IMG/VR virus record: IMGVR_UViG_3300045988_108551
From: a virus
Length of the DNA: 64,000 nucleotides
Strand: one strand, 5' to 3'
Position 1 is the stretch's first letter. Each line of letters starts with the position of its first letter. This document shows positions 2,273 through 36,277 of this stretch, in pieces. The position numbers and the translations under genes were made by a program. The notes under the pieces are model-generated. The model had not been told where the DNA came from. It made no database searches and saw only the letters and a program-made list of their open reading frames with translations.

Positions 2273-2803
2273 ATGAGAAGGAGATTTTTTAATGCTGCGG
2301 ATAATTTCGTGGGACGATGTTATAATAAGTTATCCAATGAAGAGATAAAAAGGCTTGGAGGAAAAAGACCTTATGTATGTCAGTTTAATAAAATTCATAT
2401 ACATATAGGACCTGTATTAAAAGATCATGATTCTGATGTTAGTTACATAATGTTTAATAGTAATTGGAATCATGGTGGTTATGAATCTATGGTTTATAAT
2501 CATAGCAATAATGGTATTTTTATATTAGGTGAAAACAAAATTGGTAACATAGAAGACCATATGCAAGATCTAACATATTGGTACGAATATGATCCGAGTC
2601 TTAATGAAAATTATTGTTATTATTATTATGAAGCTGATAATAGTGGAAATGCTATTAAGTTGAATGGTGAGTTTAGTGATGTTAGCACTGTTTTTAACAT
2701 TCCCAGTTTGGAAGTTACCACTCTTCGTGATGGCAGTTTGAGTTTTCCGGAGATTTATATAGAAGGAATTTGGGATCCGTCATTGTATAAGTCGGTTTTA
2801 TAA
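2273..2803 (+). CDS. Hypothetical protein (about 176 aa), N-terminus MRRRF, Asn/Tyr-rich
   Basis: ORF track gives 2264 (GTG); first ATG at 2273. Overlaps the upstream stop. Stop TAA lies inside an 11-bp inverted repeat. Confidence 0.65.
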   Translation: MRRRFFNAADNFVGRCYNKLSNEEIKRLGGKRPYVCQFNKIHIHIGPVLKDHDSDVSYIMFNSNWNHGGYESMVYNHSNNGIFILGENKIGNIEDHMQDLTYWYEYDPSLNENYCYYYYEADNSGNAIKLNGEFSDVSTVFNIPSLEVTTLRDGSLSFPEIYIEGIWDPSLYKSVL

Positions 2804-2829
2804 TTAACTTTGCAAAAAAGTTAATTACA

Positions 2830-5088
2830 ATGGGTGTCAAATGTCAGATAGAAAAAAAGGAAAATGAAATAAAACGGGTTAAGGCTCCTAACGGGGAGCC
2901 TTCCGTTCTTTACGAAAGTGCTTTAAAAGTATTAGGAAACAGCGAGCGGGCCCTTCAGGTATGGGCTAAGGCTTACACTCCTGGTTTTTTGTCGTATTAC
3001 GGTCATTGGAACAACCCGGCTCCAGGGGAGATGTTTAATACCGATCCCAATGGCGAACCTCTTTTAGAAGACGTGCTGTCGTATATGAAGCGTCAGACTT
3101 ATTTTGCTGATCCTTTAACGGCTCAGGACATTAAGGATGTAAGGGATTTCCTTTTGTCTACTCATTATTTTTTCAATGCGTCTTCATTGTCTAATGCTAT
3201 CCTCTTCGATTTTTATGTAGATGGCAGTTTGATACTGAATGAGCAGAAATTAAGGAGATCCGGTTTGTATGATGAAACAGAAATAAGTCGTATTTTATCC
3301 GATCCTTCTGTTTTAAACGAGGTTTCGACTTCCATGAGAAAGTTAATAGATTCTTCTATTAACGAACATGATAGGGAAAAGGATAATTATTTTATGTCTG
3401 TTGACTATCAGTATGGTCCTATTGTTTACAAGGAGGGAGTGTTTAACCAATTTGGTAAAAAAGTACCATATAATCCTTCTGAGCTTTATTGGGCTATGGG
3501 CAAAACAGTAGCCGGCATAAAAAACTTTTCTGAATTTTCATCTGCTTTTGAATCGTTGAGAAACTCATACCCTGAACTGGTTGAGAAATTCGTTTCTGAT
3601 AAAGAATTTGCCGAATCTATGTTTGATGAGTTCTCATCTACGAATAAGATTCCGGTAATAAACATAGAAGGGGATGATGTGGTAGAAGGCAAGAGAAGAT
3701 CCTTATCTAAGCTACAAGATCTGTCTTATTACAATCCTGGCAAAATAGAGTTCCTAAGAGCTCGTATATCGGCTTATTTACATAGGGCTAATGCCGACAC
3801 CGAATCCGATTTAAGAAGCATGATATGGGATATAGAAGAGGCTTGTACGTGGTTTGGCATAGATATAATAGGGACATCGGAAACTTATGATGGCACAGAA
3901 GAATCTTTGAATAAGATAGATAATTTGATGCTGGATCTTGATATTTATGTGGCCAGGCATAATGATGTAAATTATGCTCCAACGCTGGCATCTTCTATAG
4001 ATGATGTTCTTGGTGATAGCACAGATTATTATTTTGGATTATTACCGGAGTATATGGATAATTTGAATATCGTTTATTCTGAATCCGATATAGACCCAGT
4101 AGAGGCATTTGAGAAACATTCATTGCTTAAGGTAGGAGATAATCTATATCAAAGGATCAGCAAAGATGATCTTAACGAGATGTATCAAATATCAACAGTG
4201 TTAGCCAAGCACAACCTAACTCATTTTTCTACTAAAATATATCCTGAATCTTGTTTTAAGAACGGCGTTTTGGATAAAGAGAAAGTACGGAACGTAGATA
4301 ATAATACGCTCATGGCTTCCATTAAAAAATACGTCAGATCGTTCATGGATTCTCAGAACACGGAGGACATGATAATGACCAGGATGGCGTTTGGACACCC
4401 GGCGGTACTTGACGTTCCTTACGTGGATGTGGATCGGGAGTATAGTCGATACATGAACAAAAAACAAGATAGCGAAAACCCATTATCCTTATTCGATTTA
4501 TACCAATCTTACCTTGACAACAAACTCCATAAAACAAAATTATATGATAATGCCTATAAGTATCTTGACTTCAAACCTGGTCCATCTTTGGGCCTTATTT
4601 CTGATGATCCTGATATTTTGAAATCAATAGAATTATCTTTATCTGGAAAAGACAGGTTGATGTTGTTTGATTATAGCATGACCAGTACCGACCCTTCTTT
4701 ATCAGAATTGTTTTATTTGGAGAAGTATGACCCTTCGTATGCCGGGAATGATTTTGAACACTATTTTTACACCAGGCACCCGTATTTGTTAAAAGAAAAA
4801 TCGGGCCCTAATATCGTAGAGCAAGATGGTGTTATAACAGCCGAAGGTATTTATGATAATTTTATAAGAGTAGGTAATGAGATATGGTCTAAAGTAAGCG
4901 AGAGTAGTTCCGGCTCTATCTACCAAAATCTGACAGGAACCGAATCAGAGGTGAAATACGATTCTACTCAGAAGGCTAAGACGGTAGAAACCGATTACGC
5001 TCTATACCAAAACAGATCTGGCTTGACGCAAGACATGACCGTAAGCAAGCCTGAATTGGATGATCTTAATAAATTGGAATGTAGGTAA
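2830..5088 (+). CDS. Large hypothetical protein (752 aa)
   Basis: ATG start 22 nt downstream of a TAACTTTG (-7-like) motif; uninterrupted 2.26-kb ORF. Confidence 0.85.
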   Translation: MGVKCQIEKKENEIKRVKAPNGEPSVLYESALKVLGNSERALQVWAKAYTPGFLSYYGHWNNPAPGEMFNTDPNGEPLLEDVLSYMKRQTYFADPLTAQDIKDVRDFLLSTHYFFNASSLSNAILFDFYVDGSLILNEQKLRRSGLYDETEISRILSDPSVLNEVSTSMRKLIDSSINEHDREKDNYFMSVDYQYGPIVYKEGVFNQFGKKVPYNPSELYWAMGKTVAGIKNFSEFSSAFESLRNSYPELVEKFVSDKEFAESMFDEFSSTNKIPVINIEGDDVVEGKRRSLSKLQDLSYYNPGKIEFLRARISAYLHRANADTESDLRSMIWDIEEACTWFGIDIIGTSETYDGTEESLNKIDNLMLDLDIYVARHNDVNYAPTLASSIDDVLGDSTDYYFGLLPEYMDNLNIVYSESDIDPVEAFEKHSLLKVGDNLYQRISKDDLNEMYQISTVLAKHNLTHFSTKIYPESCFKNGVLDKEKVRNVDNNTLMASIKKYVRSFMDSQNTEDMIMTRMAFGHPAVLDVPYVDVDREYSRYMNKKQDSENPLSLFDLYQSYLDNKLHKTKLYDNAYKYLDFKPGPSLGLISDDPDILKSIELSLSGKDRLMLFDYSMTSTDPSLSELFYLEKYDPSYAGNDFEHYFYTRHPYLLKEKSGPNIVEQDGVITAEGIYDNFIRVGNEIWSKVSESSSGSIYQNLTGTESEVKYDSTQKAKTVETDYALYQNRSGLTQDMTVSKPELDDLNKLECR

Positions 5089-30979: not shown

Positions 30980-31142
30980 AATGCTTGGTCAGTTCTTCTG
31001 GTTCTAAATCTTGTCCAAAATCCATGTTAAAAATATCGTAATTAGTAAAGCACTTAAAATCACTGTCCCTGCCGGCATGAAATCTATGAATGCTGCTTTT
31101 GCTTCTTCAATTAGGCCCAAGTGTAACCTTGGGCCATTGTAT

Positions 31143-32843
31143 TTATTTTTTGTCATCTCCTTTTAACTTCTTTAAAGTATCTGCAATCGGAAGCTGATCA
31201 ATGACTCCCAATGCCGGAGCGACGGTCTTGACAACATTATTAAGGAAATTACCGGTACTGTTCTGACCGCCGTCAAATACCGTGATATTTCCGAGGTTAA
31301 TGTGCTCAAATGCTTTAACCTGTTCTCCAGCAATTTCTTTCCACTGATTAACCATCTTGTACTGGATGGCGATCTGAGGATTGGATTCTGCTGCTTCCAC
31401 CATAGCCTTAAATCCGTCGGCTTCTGCCATTAACGACTTTTTCTTACCTTCGGCTTCTGCCTCCAGTTTCATCTGAATAGCTTTTGCCTCTGCCTCAGCT
31501 TTTGCCAAATGTGCTGATGCCTCAGCCTCAGCCCGGCGTTTGATCTTCTCGGCCTCGGCATCAGCTTGCAAGATAGCCTCTTCCTTCTGGGTTTCAGCCG
31601 GCACAATCTTTTCAGCCTTAAGCGCAGCCTGAACTTTCTTAGCCTTAGCTTCTTCCACTTCTTTGTCGGCAAGCTCTTTTGCTGTTTTTACAGCCGCTTC
31701 CGATTTAACTTTTTCTTCTCCGGCCTTCTTTTCTGATTGAGCTTTGATGATCTGTAGTTCTGATACTGACACAGCAACCTCCTTCTGGGCATTGTTGTAT
31801 CCTATAGACGCATTTTTCTCAGCCTCAGCCTTCTTAATCTGAGCTTCAGAGTCTTGTATTGCTATAGCCGCTTCCTTGTCAGCTTCAGCCTTATTCTTTC
31901 CGACTTCTTCCATCCTTTCAGCCTCGGCTTTATTTACTTCAAGTTCTGCCTTAGATCTTACGATCGCCGATTCCTTGTCGGTTAAAGTTTTTGCGATAAC
32001 CGCAGCCCTGTCTCTATCTGCTTGAGCTACACCGATCTGTTTCTCTTTATCGGTTAAAGCCAAGGCTATTTCTTTTTCTTTCTTCGTTTCAGCTACTATC
32101 GTTTCCTTTTCTTTTTCAGTACAAGCAATTTGAATCTCTTGTTCTTTTTTGGTATTAGCCACAGCCGTTTCTTTCTCCTTCTGCTGTACAGCAATCTTAA
32201 TAGCACCCAGCTTCTCCTGCTCTTCGATATTAGCCTGTGCTTCGTTCAGAGCCCTACTTTCAGCCTCCTTACCAAGGTTCATAATATAACCGGCTTCGTC
32301 TCTGATGTCACTGATGTTGATGTTCAGGAGGTAAAGACCTAACTTATTAAGCTCGTTATCAATGTTCTTTCTTGCCTTATCCAAAAACTCATCCCTGTCA
32401 GAATTAAGTTTTTCGATTGTCATTTCAGCAATAATCAAACGCATCTGACCGTAAACGATGTCCGTAATAAGATTTTCAGTAGATTCGGTATCCATCCCCA
32501 AAAGTCTTTCTGCCGCATTTTGCATGATTTCGGGATTTGTACTGATAGCTACTGTAATGGTCGTAGGTACATCTACTCTAATATTCTGAGATGACAAAGC
32601 ACCGGTAAGCTTGCAATCTATTTGCATAGGCTCCATTGACAAAACATCATAGCTTTGAATAATAGGCAAGACAAATGCCGCTCCACCATGATATAATTTC
32701 GCCGATTTCTTTTCCCCACCTGTCTTACCATAAACGACCAAGACCTGATTAGGCTTACATCTACGATACCTTGATAAGACTCCGATGATTGTCAAAATAA
32801 TCACTACAGCTAAGATAGCTGACACGTACATGATTGTTGTCAT
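31143..32843 (-). CDS. Flotillin-like SPFH/band-7 protein (YqiK-like) with an N-terminal transmembrane helix and Ala/Glu/Lys-repeat coiled coil
   Basis: N-terminal TM (VSAILAVVIILTIIGVL), then an SPFH-like domain (NQVLVVYGKTGG ... IRVDVPTTITVAIS ... IVYGQMRLIIAEMTIEKL), then a long EAEAKA-type coiled coil and a C-terminal tail. Confidence 0.9.
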   Translation of the reverse strand: MTTIMYVSAILAVVIILTIIGVLSRYRRCKPNQVLVVYGKTGGEKKSAKLYHGGAAFVLPIIQSYDVLSMEPMQIDCKLTGALSSQNIRVDVPTTITVAISTNPEIMQNAAERLLGMDTESTENLITDIVYGQMRLIIAEMTIEKLNSDRDEFLDKARKNIDNELNKLGLYLLNINISDIRDEAGYIMNLGKEAESRALNEAQANIEEQEKLGAIKIAVQQKEKETAVANTKKEQEIQIACTEKEKETIVAETKKEKEIALALTDKEKQIGVAQADRDRAAVIAKTLTDKESAIVRSKAELEVNKAEAERMEEVGKNKAEADKEAAIAIQDSEAQIKKAEAEKNASIGYNNAQKEVAVSVSELQIIKAQSEKKAGEEKVKSEAAVKTAKELADKEVEEAKAKKVQAALKAEKIVPAETQKEEAILQADAEAEKIKRRAEAEASAHLAKAEAEAKAIQMKLEAEAEGKKKSLMAEADGFKAMVEAAESNPQIAIQYKMVNQWKEIAGEQVKAFEHINLGNITVFDGGQNSTGNFLNNVVKTVAPALGVIDQLPIADTLKKLKGDDKK

Positions 32844-32874
32844 AACTTTTAAAATTTAATTGTTGATAAAAAAA

Positions 32875-33369
32875 TTAGATACTTAATTCTCCTTCTTCAT
32901 ATTTTATATTCGCCTTGTCGCCGTTTTTGTAGGTTTTTCCAGACAAGCATCTTACTCTCATTTGCTCTTGTCTTCCATTTTTCGAAATATTTACCATATA
33001 ATGATTCTTCCCTGATCTAAATACTATCTCCACTTCTCTTCCGTTTAAATCTTCCGGACATTCGTACACCATTTCTTGCTTTAACTTAAGAAGTAACTTA
33101 TATACGTAAAACAAAACGATAAAGAAAAACGACCCTATCACAACCCCTACTAAATGGGAACCCGAAAAGTAGGTAGTCCAGCTATATCCAAGAATAAAAT
33201 GTGTTATGCCCTTGAATGATATGATGTCCGACAAAGACATACTTAAATCAGAAGCACTGTCAATGTCAATATCCGTATCCAGATCAGATCCTAATATCGA
33301 CAACAAAAACTGTATAACAAAAGCAAATGACGCTATTAAAGCCATGCATAAAATTATGTCACTTCCCAT
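32875..33369 (-). CDS. NfeD/YqiJ-like membrane protein (partner of SPFH proteins)
   Basis: Two TM segments separated by an acidic DLDTDIDIDSASD stretch (YqiJ hallmark) and a C-terminal beta-rich soluble domain. Lies 31 nt upstream of the flotillin gene on the same strand. Confidence 0.75.
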   Translation of the reverse strand: MGSDIILCMALIASFAFVIQFLLSILGSDLDTDIDIDSASDLSMSLSDIISFKGITHFILGYSWTTYFSGSHLVGVVIGSFFFIVLFYVYKLLLKLKQEMVYECPEDLNGREVEIVFRSGKNHYMVNISKNGRQEQMRVRCLSGKTYKNGDKANIKYEEGELSI

Positions 33370-33610
33370 ACCCTTCTGTTATTATTTTGTAAACAAGATC
33401 AGTCATATCTTTGATGGTCTCCATATCATAATCAATAATAACAATATTGAATTTTTGTTCCACCATCACTTCCAGTTCAATTTGATCAACAGAATCTAAT
33501 CCAAGTTCTTTAAACGTCACATCTTCTTCATGAACTATATCTATTTCCGAATTAAGAAACTGAGTAATAATTATATCCTCTATTATCTTTCTGATTCTTA
33601 CTTTTTCCAT
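33359..33610 (-). CDS. Acyl carrier protein (83 aa)
   Basis: LGLDSVDQIELEVMVEQKFNIVI matches the ACP phosphopantetheine-attachment helix II (DSL/DSV Ser followed by acidic EL.M.E). Acidic, small, four-helix-sized. Confidence 0.8.
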   Translation of the reverse strand: MEKVRIRKIIEDIIITQFLNSEIDIVHEEDVTFKELGLDSVDQIELEVMVEQKFNIVIIDYDMETIKDMTDLVYKIITEGYGK

Positions 33611-34311
33611 TGCTTTCTAATTTTGTTAAATAAATACGTTTTTATGTTTTTCAATCGCTCTTTGTCTGTTTCAGAACTTCCGGTAAACAAATAATCCGGA
33701 TTGCCTTTAGCCGGCGGCGTAGGCAATTTAGATACGGCAAACAACCAATCCATTTCCTTATTCTTCTTAGACTCCAAATAAGGCTCGGTAGCGATCTTAA
33801 ATTTTTCAGCTATTAAGTCAAAGAGCTTTGAATTTTTAAGGTTCATATGAACTGAAAAAGCCTGAGAAGGCGGTTTCCATATGAAGTTACATAAGCTCAT
33901 TGTATAATCTCCTGACTCTGCTATATAAGATTCCGTTACCTGAAGTATGACCTCTTTCTTGAATGAGGTGTTACCCATAAACCAACACAATCTGGATTCC
34001 GCTTCTTTTCTGCTGACACCTATGTCTTTTGAATACGATTCGTACATTCCTATCATAATCTTCAACGTTTCCAGAACCTCGTCTGTCATTTCCGGTGTCT
34101 CTATATAATTCACAAAAGACGTTCCCTTGTTGGTCAATCTCATCACGCCTGATTTTAATTTCTCAACCAGGCCAAGCTCTATATACCTCCCAGCATCTTC
34201 TTCCGGCATGGCTTCGATCATAACCGAATCCTTCTGTCTTATGGCAAGAAGATTGGCAAGATCATTAGGAGTCATGTCTGATGCTGCAAGTTGTCTGAAA
34301 TTGATGTACAT
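33598..34311 (-). CDS. Hypothetical protein (237 aa), first large gene of the flotillin/NfeD/ACP operon
   Basis: 13-nt overlap with the ACP gene and 2-nt gap to the upstream small gene. Confidence 0.7.
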   Translation of the reverse strand: MYINFRQLAASDMTPNDLANLLAIRQKDSVMIEAMPEEDAGRYIELGLVEKLKSGVMRLTNKGTSFVNYIETPEMTDEVLETLKIMIGMYESYSKDIGVSRKEAESRLCWFMGNTSFKKEVILQVTESYIAESGDYTMSLCNFIWKPPSQAFSVHMNLKNSKLFDLIAEKFKIATEPYLESKKNKEMDWLFAVSKLPTPPAKGNPDYLFTGSSETDKERLKNIKTYLFNKIRKQWKK

Positions 34312-34313
34312 TC

Positions 34314-34511
34314 TTAATCAGCTTTAATAAAAATAACATTCTTGTTATCTTGTCTATCAACATGTCCACATGGACCAATAATTATGTCTGTATATGAACA
34401 AGAATCGTAATCTTCGAATATACACCTATCGCATGTATCACCTTCCACACATTTTAATCTTACAAGTCCGGCAGGAAATACTTCTCCTACTTTAAATTCC
34501 TTCTTTTCCAT
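34314..34511 (-). CDS. Small Cys-rich protein (65 aa)
   Basis: C..C ... C ... C pattern (CVEGDTCDRC ... C ... C). Confidence 0.5.
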   Translation of the reverse strand: MEKKEFKVGEVFPAGLVRLKCVEGDTCDRCIFEDYDSCSYTDIIIGPCGHVDRQDNKNVIFIKAD

Positions 34512-34526: not shown

Positions 34527-35129
34527 TTAACTGTTGTACCCTTCTTTAATAATCGAATTTCTACCAGTAGATACCGACTGTCGAAGATCGTCATGTACAG
34601 AATCTACCGTAGAATACTTGTTTCTGGTTGTAAAAATCACTTCCAGCATCTCCTTGTAATCACCTAAAGCTACTTCGTATCTCGGATCTACTTTGGCTTT
34701 TCTTTCGGCCTCGGCATTACTTTTAGCCAGTTCTCGGTCGAGGAGGTCTTCTTTGATTCGGTCAGCAATCATATCAAGTTCTTTTTTAATAACTTCTCCT
34801 GCTGCCCGAAGTTGACCTTCTACGTCACCAAGCTGGTCTTGGACGGTTCCTATTTCTTTCTTTAGGCGATCGTATTCGTTAATCATACCCATATCACCTG
34901 CATAGCCGGAAAAGTCCTTGATTATTCTGGTTCCTTCTTTAAGGAGCTCAATAACTCGTCTTTTACGTTCTCTGCTTATTAAAGACGGAAGACGATAATT
35001 CATATCCGCCACCGCCTTATCATGTATGGAGTTGATTAAAAACATCTCTCTTTCATCTCCTGCAAACTCAGTAAGAACCAAAAGGAACTTACTTATCAGG
35101 TATTCGTTTTCTTCTACTGTCAGTCTCAT
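34527..35129 (-). CDS. Coiled-coil hypothetical protein (about 201 aa)
   Basis: Start moved to internal Met 52 (MRLTVEENEY...) because the track's N-terminal extension is GC-rich and overlaps the DnaB-like gene. Confidence 0.6.
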   Translation of the reverse strand: MRLTVEENEYLISKFLLVLTEFAGDEREMFLINSIHDKAVADMNYRLPSLISRERKRRVIELLKEGTRIIKDFSGYAGDMGMINEYDRLKKEIGTVQDQLGDVEGQLRAAGEVIKKELDMIADRIKEDLLDRELAKSNAEAERKAKVDPRYEVALGDYKEMLEVIFTTRNKYSTVDSVHDDLRQSVSTGRNSIIKEGYNS

Positions 35130-35143
35130 GGTTCTTATTTTTT

Positions 35144-36277
35144 TTAATACAATGACTGTTCTTCTTTTGTCTCTTGTTCTTGTTCCTGATTGTCCGTAAC
35201 GTCTTCCACAGTATAGAGCTTGGGCGGCGTCGGCGGCTGGTTGGGGTTCACGAACTTCGTCCCGCCCTCCCCGTACATCCATCCATGCCCCGGCAGAATC
35301 TCTGGGTGGATTGTATTAGTAAGCTCTTCCATACTAACTTGCCTTACCTTCAGTATATGATGAAACACCAGTCCGGCTGTCCTGAATGATGTTTTGTTTT
35401 CAGTTTTAAACCTATCAAGAGTCTGATACCAATCTTTCCCAAATATCATATACTTATCCAGCCCGTACCTACGAGGATTGTGCAAACCTATCATTAACGT
35501 ACATAACTGACCCAGCGTATCAGATTGGTAAAAATCAGAAAGACGCGGAGGCTGCTCTTGTGGGCTTTTTATCCTTCCTTCTATCTCTCTGTTGAATTGT
35601 GATATGATGAGGAAAAATATGTTTTTATATACTAATTTAGCTTCGTTCATAACCGCCACCAAATCATCTATAGCCGACTTAGGATCTAACCCCATTCTTT
35701 TTATCAAAGCAATATGATCGACTTTAAATATTATAAGACGTTTGTCTTTGTGTTTGGTAGCTATATGATACACAGCCGCCTCAAACTCTTTTACCGTACA
35801 CGGAGCATCGATGTATATTATATTATTCCTGATTTCACCCTGAAGGATTTCAAACATCCTCATCTCTTCCACTGTATTAGAATCTTGCCTTCTTAATATT
35901 TCAGGAGCCCGCTTTTTCATATCCTGGCTCATTCTACGAAGAAGAAGATCTTGAGGATTCATTTCGAACTCGCAATTAACAAGAAAATAATCTTCTGCTT
36001 GCGGGTTGATCATCGGATTCATCACATTTTCCAATATCTTTTGGGCCACATACGATTTACCTACAGATGGCCGGGCTCCTATGGCAATAGCATGCTGAGG
36101 GAAAATACCTCCAAGCAAAGCCTCATCAATATAATCGTATCCGGTTTTAGCGGGGATAAGCTCTCCCCGCCTGTATTTCAAGATATTCTCATACGCCTCT
36201 TCCATGACCTGTTTAGAGGTCTTGAATATCCTTCTTATATCTATCCTATTTGCTATCTCCTCGTGCATTTTTGTCAC
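35144..36277 (-). CDS. DnaB-like replicative helicase (RecA-fold C-terminal domain only)
   Basis: Walker A GARPSVGKSY, Walker B-like FKVDHIALI, ISQFNRE (SQLNR-like H3/arginine finger). Lacks the DnaB N-terminal domain. Confidence 0.85.
   Translation of the reverse strand: MTKMHEEIANRIDIRRIFKTSKQVMEEAYENILKYRRGELIPAKTGYDYIDEALLGGIFPQHAIAIGARPSVGKSYVAQKILENVMNPMINPQAEDYFLVNCEFEMNPQDLLLRRMSQDMKKRAPEILRRQDSNTVEEMRMFEILQGEIRNNIIYIDAPCTVKEFEAAVYHIATKHKDKRLIIFKVDHIALIKRMGLDPKSAIDDLVAVMNEAKLVYKNIFFLIISQFNREIEGRIKSPQEQPPRLSDFYQSDTLGQLCTLMIGLHNPRRYGLDKYMIFGKDWYQTLDRFKTENKTSFRTAGLVFHHILKVRQVSMEELTNTIHPEILPGHGWMYGEGGTKFVNPNQPPTPPKLYTVEDVTDNQEQEQETKEEQSLY

Follow-up and report, generated by a model that had tools for sequence, protein, structure and literature searches.

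Do five closely packed genes of a phage replication block, among them genes for a flotillin and for a protein of acyl carrier protein (ACP) fold, encode one functional unit, or do they only lie side by side? The question is raised by a locus of the IMG/VR record IMGVR_UViG_3300045988_108551, a stretch of 64,000 nucleotides, nt (the window; coordinates are window positions unless a contig is named). On its minus strand, co-directional open reading frames (ORFs) for a Cys-rich protein of 65 amino acids (aa), a 237-aa protein, the 83-aa ACP-like protein, a 164-aa membrane protein and the 566-aa flotillin follow one another with overlaps or gaps of at most 31 nt. A preliminary description, whose ORFs we found where it had placed them, proposed that they form an operon linking the flotillin and a YqiJ-type NfeD protein to an ACP and to lipid metabolism. 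Flotillin/NfeD pairs are widespread in bacteria, and their function is poorly understood. Results of our analysis favour, with a probability of about 60%, a different reading, in which the flotillin gene and the gene upstream of it, possibly joined by a downstream gene for a 50-aa protein, form a host-derived SPFH/NfeD-like scaffold cassette, captured from a Bacteroidota host by an ancestor of this clade of epsilon crAss-like phages and kept as an accessory module.

The flotillin and its membrane partner

The SPFH domain ascribed earlier to the 566-aa protein was confirmed, and the sequence agrees with the N-terminal anchor and coiled coil. Pfam Band_7 (PF01145) matches its residues 30-211 with 91.7 bits (cut-off 23.6, E 7.6e-26), and Pfam Flot (PF15975) matches residues 450-559 at the C-terminus with 39 bits (cut-off 27, E 1e-9). 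A long Glu/Ala/Lys-rich segment (residues ~200-450) reads as a coiled coil. Residues ~5-24 (YVSAILAVVIILTIIGVLS) are hydrophobic, also in bacterial homologues, and read as the membrane anchor. The protein is 23% identical to E. coli YqiK over the full length (E 2e-20); it does not reach the FloT equivalog model (NCBIfam NF058507), scoring 145 bits vs. the curated cut-off of 700, and no family of PHROGs matches it. From this domain content, we assign it as a flotillin of SPFH2 type and not as a FloT orthologue.

The length of the flotillin coiled coil varies among near-identical phages. While 566 aa is typical, an allele of 481 aa with an in-frame deletion of 85 aa (~residues 306-392) is present on at least seven contigs (e.g., L093, 7001-8446), and other lengths retrieved in the protein search range from 408 to 595 aa, some of them possibly representing truncated contigs. 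No DNA tandem repeat that would account for this variation was detected by Tandem Repeats Finder.

The gene of the 164-aa protein lies 31 nt upstream of the flotillin gene. An AlphaFold2 model of this protein (predicted local distance difference test, pLDDT, 73) comprises a transmembrane (TM) helix (residues 2-25), a disordered acidic loop, a TM hairpin (residues 52-100, with helices 52-69 and 72-100) and, at the C-terminus, a six-strand OB-like barrel (residues 112-163, pLDDT ~84), which agrees with the two TM blocks around an acidic D-x-D-x-D stretch that had been noticed in the sequence. In the order of the polypeptide, the first helix is followed by the acidic DxDxDxD loop, an S-F-K-G-x-x-H-F motif, the hairpin and the barrel. 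When 48,164 PDB chains were searched, the best matches of the predicted beta-barrel were NfeD OB domains, and the top Foldseek match of the full model was full-length YbbJ in structure 8z5g (119 columns, probability 0.97, E 0.02).

Sequence models did not recognise this likeness. The 164-aa protein is matched by no model of Pfam, NCBIfam, PHROG or PADLOC; for Pfam, this holds up to E 10. The models Pfam NfeD (PF01957) and YqiJ_N/YqiJ_OB (PF21001 and PF07290) are unmatched (E up to 1-10) by the phage protein, its phage relatives and 27 bacterial homologues; the positive controls, E. coli YqiJ and YbbJ, strongly match the YqiJ_N/YqiJ_OB and NfeD models. An exhaustive profile search assembled the relatives of the protein into a Bacteroidota-wide family of 414 representative clusters, the hallmark of which in family alignments is the conserved acidic DxDxDxD loop followed by the nearly invariant S-F-K-G-x-x-H-F motif. 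No Pfam model covers this family. Pfam NfeD is reached by one of its 74 remote members (6e-5), the sole non-TM PDB match of the family profile is the OB domain of YuaF (E 0.36), and profile as well as profile-profile links to NfeD/YqiJ are not significant. The partner evolves fast in general, its identity between Bacteroides and Prevotella being 49%, while that of the flotillin is 90%.

According to Hinderhofer et al. 2009 (PMC2636767), little sequence is conserved among the partners of SPFH2 proteins, which are recognised from their structure and operon and have been transferred laterally together with the SPFH gene. Since the 164-aa protein fits this description, we accept it as NfeD-like despite the failure of sequence models. 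Homologues of the partner are encoded directly upstream of flotillin also in the contigs L082, L084, L091 and L092, and the 164-aa protein is the phage version of a small membrane protein whose gene directly precedes flotillin in Bacteroidales chromosomes and which has the NfeD architecture of TM helices and a C-terminal OB barrel. Its likeness to NfeD lies only in the predicted fold and in the position upstream of the flotillin gene. A distant pair of partner and flotillin (36% and ~40% identical, respectively) is present on the short metagenomic contigs L082 (197-2645) and L083, where it adjoins a divergently transcribed gene of a 197-aa protein and where no ACP gene was found.

Origin and maintenance of the pair

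Flotillins that are 62-67% identical to the phage protein over the full length are encoded by the chromosomes of Bacteroides, Phocaeicola, Parabacteroides, Prevotella, Leyella and Xylanibacter. In a census in which one genome per species was scanned, and which provided 80 Bacteroidales flotillin loci, a partner homologue (30-41% identity, E down to 5e-36) lies directly upstream of flotillin and on the same strand in 79 of them; the single remaining locus has no upstream sequence. In the metagenomic bacterial contigs L091 and L092, the pair is placed amid housekeeping genes. Both this context and the gene order in 79 of the 80 loci indicate that the pair is a two-gene operon of Bacteroidales, captured by the phage as a unit. 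Homologues of the ACP-like, 237-aa, 65-aa and 50-aa proteins are encoded within 4 kb of flotillin in none of the 80 loci.

The capture is not recent, as can be concluded from the tree placement of the phage copies, their composition and their presence in a divergent phage. In conserved columns of the flotillin alignment, the bacterial copies are 84-96% mutually identical, and the phage clade is ~72% identical to all of them; in a neighbour-joining tree this clade branches outside the sampled Bacteroidales genera. The phage and host partners share 33-42% identity. The GC content at third codon positions (GC3) of the phage flotillin gene is 0.41, like that of neighbouring phage core genes. A second phage lineage, represented by L084, keeps the pair in the same place, with flotillin 82% and partner 61% identical to those of the window and with synonymous divergence (dS) saturated.

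The genomic residence of the pair is likewise that of a phage component. Over its full length, the region shares 98.1% identity with OR575929.1, the complete 151-kb genome of the epsilon crAss-like phage csAssE-Sib from human gut, in which the block lies between the genes of a DnaB-like helicase and an exonuclease, so that the replication/early-block context assumed in the preliminary description is upheld. The flotillin is encoded by 165 IMG/VR contigs, the best 80 of which are 96-100% identical to the window copy, and the protein clusters comprise ~2,400-3,000 member sequences each. In the 80 near-identical loci checked, the ten genes that run from DnaB to the exonuclease are present together, and each is intact.

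In population-level comparisons, the ratio of nonsynonymous to synonymous divergence (dN/dS) shows that the flotillin and its partner are under purifying selection as strong as that acting on phage replication genes, and that the constraint on the ACP-like, 50-aa and 65-aa genes is far weaker (Table 1); the comparison of the window with L084 is unusable for this purpose, as dS is saturated. The maintenance of a complete host-derived pair under such selection suggests that the scaffold does something useful for the virus.

Could the locus be an artefact or a passenger, namely mis-assembled host DNA or a recently gained, decaying gene? Its clear homology to a host chromosomal operon is what one would then expect, but we find this hardly credible. 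The same arrangement recurs in the complete csAssE-Sib genome and in the 165 contigs, which come from many samples; ORFs are intact, dN/dS of the pair is 0.035-0.05, the composition is phage-like and not host-like, and the clade lies outside the sampled host genera. Recent contamination with host DNA or mis-assembly was rejected on these grounds. The preliminary description had set a conserved phage operon against a host-derived insertion, and each applies in part: the flotillin pair comes from a host, yet it has long resided in one phage clade, where selection maintains it.

Table 1. Genes of the locus and its flanks in window coordinates, with population-level dN/dS
Feature	Position	Strand	Basis	dN/dS
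65-aa Cys-rich protein gene	34314-34511	minus	ORF	0.67
237-aa winged-helix protein gene	33598-34311	minus	ORF	0.038
83-aa ACP-fold protein gene	33359-33610	minus	ORF, Pfam PP-binding	0.31
164-aa NfeD-like partner gene	32875-33369	minus	ORF, predicted fold, position upstream of flotillin	0.049
566-aa flotillin gene	31143-32843	minus	ORF, Pfam Band_7 and Flot	0.035
50-aa protein gene (C-terminal hydrophobic stretch)	31004-31156	minus	ORF	0.45
251-aa ORF	34527-35282		ORF	
DnaB-like helicase gene	35144-36277			0.045
PD-(D/E)XK exonuclease gene				0.037

The surrounding genes and the limits of the unit

The boundary drawn around the five genes is arbitrary, and the sequence itself gives no support to it, since tight co-directional packing continues on both sides, no terminator lies inside and promoter matches are at chance. 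The spacings from the 65-aa gene to the flotillin gene are +2, -13, -11 and +31 nt. Upstream, a gene of a 251-aa protein is 15 nt away from the block; downstream, the gene of the 50-aa protein overlaps the flotillin stop codon by 14 nt and is followed by a gene of a 119-aa protein at +24 nt and by the PD-(D/E)XK exonuclease gene at -4 nt. The five genes are part of a ~40-kb minus-strand array that extends from ~22 kb of the window onward, and the tight packing is a genome-wide trait, not peculiar to them. A terminator scan revealed no minus-strand terminator-like sites inside the block and none in the flanking genes either. Matches to sigma-70-type promoters number 25 vs. 21.2 +/- 4.9 expected, in a scan that does not cover Bacteroides promoters. 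The 251-aa ORF and the DnaB-like helicase gene share 139 nt; homologues of the 251-aa protein in related phages have ~200 aa, which suggests that the true start is probably an internal Met at about residue 52.

The 83-aa protein matches Pfam PP-binding (PF00550) with 26.7 bits (cut-off 20.8) and phrog_5934 with E 2e-8, and stays under all NCBIfam ACP cut-offs, its best score being 30 vs. 71. It contains a phosphopantetheine serine motif, GLDSVD in the window and GLDSLD in L084 (5532-5798). The ACP assignment is thus confirmed for the domain by the Pfam match, and not by the more specific models. In positional orthologues encoded on four contigs of a sister lineage (L086, 6675-6938; L176, 4563-4826; L178, 6675-6938; L179, 6675-6944), the motif reads GFDDLD, with Asp in place of Ser, and these orthologues would be ACP-fold proteins unable to carry the prosthetic group. 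A wider lipid pathway is not supported: among 206 features of OR575929.1, outside positions 100,001-108,145, no genes for a phosphopantetheinyl transferase (PPTase), fatty-acid synthesis or an acyltransferase are annotated. The loss of the serine in the sister orthologues, together with this lack of annotated PPTase and lipid genes, points to a conserved role of the ACP-like protein that does not need acyl carriage, perhaps that of a small acidic partner of the 237-aa protein.

The latter had been considered a candidate for an acyltransferase or PPTase fold, and this role was rejected, as the protein carries a MarR-like winged-helix domain for DNA binding at its N-terminus and a helical domain at its C-terminus. 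It has no PHROG or NCBIfam match, and PADLOC gave only a non-significant match to LmuC. Its gene, which overlaps the ACP-like gene by 13 nt, is a conserved gene of the replication module: homologues 57-60% identical are encoded by the sister phages L086, L087 and L176-L179 (DnaB ~61% identical). The gene order in the sister phages is DnaB, a 200-aa protein, a 121-aa protein, the 237-aa homologue, the overlapping ACP-like gene, a DNA cytosine methylase, a homologue of the 119-aa (p119-like) protein, a 53-aa protein, two radical-SAM proteins and the PD-(D/E)XK exonuclease; flotillin and its partner are absent from this lineage (L086, L087, L176-L179). Alongside the genes of remoter 237-aa homologues (36-37% identical; L088 and L089), no PP-binding gene is called, one of them being followed by an uncharacterised 65-aa ORF, and the ACP-like, partner and flotillin genes have no homologues in these two records. 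The ACP-like gene is accordingly grouped with the 237-aa gene and not with the flotillin gene.

The 65-aa protein has no significant family match in Pfam, PHROG or NCBIfam (a weak one is phrog_33085, E 0.003), occurs in the population as two divergent alleles, ~94% and ~62% (over 69 residues) identical to the window copy, and is missing in the flotillin-bearing phage L084; its gene is a variable, dispensable accessory that lies outside both modules. The 50-aa protein has a homologue in L084 (8011-8169) that is 33% identical and occupies the same position, overlapping flotillin. With tblastn, no homologues were found in flotillin-less sister phages or bacterial loci, although so small and divergent a protein could escape detection, as the L084 copy did. 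Its C-terminal stretch reads as a membrane anchor, and the protein may be a third, phage-specific component of the cassette.

The five genes co-occur only within one species-level phage group and are separate in L084, L086, L087, L176-L179, L088, L089 and the 80 bacterial loci. This separation across relatives and bacterial loci argues that the block is a mosaic of three units: the variable 65-aa gene, an old pair of winged-helix and ACP-like genes, and the host-derived cassette of partner and flotillin, perhaps with the 50-aa gene. That the five genes adjoin would have no other cause than a slot, bounded by the ACP-like gene and the PD-(D/E)XK exonuclease gene, whose accessory genes differ between lineages. 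In L086 (6941-9946), this slot is filled by a DNA cytosine-5 methylase gene and two radical-SAM genes. The methylase ORF of L178 (6949-8826) has 625 aa vs. 277 aa, a difference that hints at the insertion of an element, e.g., an intein. TnpB/IS605 OrfB genes and helicase genes split by intein or homing-endonuclease domains were also seen in related replication modules (L084, 13497-14288; L087, 1592-2812 and 12288-12711; L089, 6142-8571).

The alternative that all five genes are one operon has to be judged against this pattern. In it, the 237-aa and 65-aa proteins, as acyltransferase or PPTase, would perform a lipid or acyl reaction that depends on the ACP and that feeds or modifies a flotillin/NfeD microdomain. 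This alternative agrees with the co-direction of the genes, with the overlaps of 11-13 nt among the 237-aa, ACP-like and partner genes, with the lack of an internal terminator, with the joint occurrence of ten neighbouring genes in 80 near-identical contigs and with the presence of the ACP serine in the two flotillin-bearing lineages alone. However, an ACP gene is near flotillin in none of the 80 bacterial loci, the 237-aa and ACP-like pair exists without flotillin in sister phages, and remoter 237-aa genes have no PP-binding neighbour. Furthermore, the 237-aa protein is a winged-helix protein, the 65-aa protein is missing in L084, the ACP-like and 65-aa proteins are weakly constrained, the annotation of OR575929.1 names neither a PPTase nor a lipid gene, and tight packing is found throughout the genome. 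The co-occurrence data have largely refuted the five-gene operon already, and we regard it as very improbable; the interpretation as a lipid operon is not supported.

Certain points nevertheless speak against the favoured reading. That the ACP-like protein has its serine in no lineages but the two with flotillin would fit a lineage-specific link; being a single phylogenetic contrast, it was given no weight. The 11-nt overlap of the ACP-like and partner genes is a real translational coupling and could mean a co-expression of functional meaning in this lineage. The partner fails every NfeD/YqiJ sequence model, hhalign comparisons with YqiJ and YbbJ gave probabilities of 1-4%, and its structure model was built from a 4-sequence alignment.

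Possible functions and related systems

SPFH proteins form ring, dome or cage assemblies on membranes (PMC12624060; NfeD-SPFH complex, PDB 8z5g). By analogy, the flotillin of this uncultured phage may oligomerise with the co-evolved partner that the phage itself encodes, and form an SPFH dome or cage at the inner membrane of the host, on its cytoplasmic side. The cassette genes lie in the co-directional early/replication array and would probably be expressed with it, and the phage could thereby supply or re-shape a membrane microdomain during infection. The benefit could be that membrane organisation and membrane-protein quality control are kept running, or that a platform for phage processes is provided. 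As to function, a self-contained scaffold would rank first, interference with the host second and conflict with other phages or with defence third.

Interference with the host would mean that the phage pair mixes with host flotillin as a dominant-negative or decoy component, or cages a membrane protease such as FtsH, so that membrane-protein turnover is redirected or the outcome of infection is shifted. The SPFH and C-terminal domains, ~72% identical to those of the host in conserved columns, are close enough for mixed oligomers, and the control of lambda CII by HflK/C-FtsH is a precedent. Links between SPFH proteins and FtsH have been described in the literature (including PMC2636767), and the csAssE-Sib paper reports a repressor and anti-repressors encoded by the phage genus (PMC11054128). 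However, the phage has kept its own partner, diverged to 33-42% identity from that of the host, which suggests a self-contained complex, and the role of flotillin in Bacteroides itself is unstudied in the literature searched. We therefore consider interference with the host unlikely, though not far-fetched.

Somewhat less probable still is the use of the cassette in inter-phage or anti-defence conflict, e.g., in superinfection exclusion at the inner membrane or in protection against abortive-infection effectors or premature lysis. The slot of the cassette is a variable accessory one, filled in sister phages by a DNA methylase gene, a small phage-specific membrane protein co-occurs with it, and flotillin has been gained sporadically and independently by unrelated phages such as KIT04. 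On the other hand, no PADLOC defence model matches, arms-race genes would not typically show such strong purifying selection and so little diversity, and the literature searched contains no experimental precedent. Of a similarly low probability is a more elaborate proposal, in which flotillin, partner and the 50-aa protein build a phage-specific cage in the Bacteroides inner membrane that encloses or excludes a host machine (e.g., FtsH-type quality control or envelope synthesis) and thereby contributes to the infection style of crAss-like phages, which is long, non-lytic or persistent; in this lineage, the cage might also recruit the serine-bearing ACP-like protein.

The arrangement had been thought undescribed, which holds for its analysis but not for its annotation. 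Three of the genes are labelled in OR575929.1 as "flotillin family protein", "transmembrane protein" and "acyl carrier protein", next to hypothetical ones, and the csAssE-Sib paper (PMC11054128) nowhere mentions flotillin, SPFH, NfeD or ACP. Literature searches (crAss and flotillin; phage-encoded flotillin; SPFH, NfeD and bacteriophage; Bacteroides, flotillin and phage) found no earlier analysis, and a search for ACP and crAss returned unrelated papers only. The locus is thus partly annotated in GenBank already but was not analysed before. The host-derived cassette matters as a compact, diverged, self-contained version of a bacterial module, in an abundant phage lineage of the human gut, of which public gut metagenomes contain thousands of sequences. 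In addition, the analysis defines a Bacteroidota-wide partner family of NfeD-like predicted fold that is invisible to current Pfam models, and it draws attention to an ACP-fold protein whose orthologues in sister phages have lost the prosthetic-group serine.

The closest known system is the operon of Bacteroidales hosts, in which genes of a 165-aa membrane protein and a flotillin (e.g., L109 of B. thetaiotaomicron, L121 of B. xylanisolvens and L149 of P. vulgatus) are direct homologues of the phage pair, with the same gene order, strand, domain layouts and a short spacer (~40 nt in bacteria and 31 nt in the phage). Unlike the phage copies, these are chromosomal housekeeping genes, 84-96% identical across genera, whereas the phage copies form an outlying, faster-diverged clade of phage-like composition, with a variable coiled-coil length and an extra, overlapping gene of a 50-aa protein. 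The partner-then-flotillin order is shared also by YqiJ-YqiK of E. coli and YuaF (NfeD2)-FloT of B. subtilis (PMC2636767), the spacing being that of yqiJ-yqiK, as are the TM part and C-terminal OB barrel of the partner, the anchor, SPFH, coiled-coil and Flot parts of the flotillin, and lateral co-transfer. The phage partner differs from YqiJ in its length (164 aa vs. 209 aa), in its own DxDxDxD loop and SFKGxxHF motif, and in leaving the Pfam models unmatched. The QmcA-YbbJ complex of E. coli (PDB 8z5g), the top Foldseek match over the TM and OB parts, offers a structural precedent, as its SPFH cage binds an NfeD protein; however, QmcA is a stomatin-type SPFH1 protein, the gene order is reversed, the Foldseek E value is only 0.02, and there is no sequence similarity of the phage partner to YbbJ.

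Among phages, the 83-aa protein resembles phage ACPs (phrog_5934; g153 of Yersinia phage fHe-Yen9-04) as a small protein of PP-binding fold, but differs from them in being fixed beside a winged-helix gene of the replication module and in having sister orthologues without the serine. Phage-borne flotillins are rare, as 11 of 50,697 phage records match in tblastn, mostly with short or unannotated sequences. An SPFH-domain lipoprotein of phage GIB1 has been reported, its role being called "unclear" (PMC13239085, 2026). The T5-like Vibrio phage KIT04 (LC487410.1; L258, 2680-4350) encodes a 473-aa flotillin, KIT04_048 (Band_7 E 4.6e-24), and, abutting upstream, an 82-aa multi-TM protein whose first TM helix is followed by an acidic DLDD stretch. 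In contrast to the pair studied here, this is an independent acquisition by a phage of an unrelated family and host, with a flotillin of 29% identity and an upstream protein that has no OB domain. The locus is no new kind of system and its value is moderate; it holds a host-derived accessory pair of the SPFH2/NfeD2 type that is unusually complete among phage-borne flotillins.

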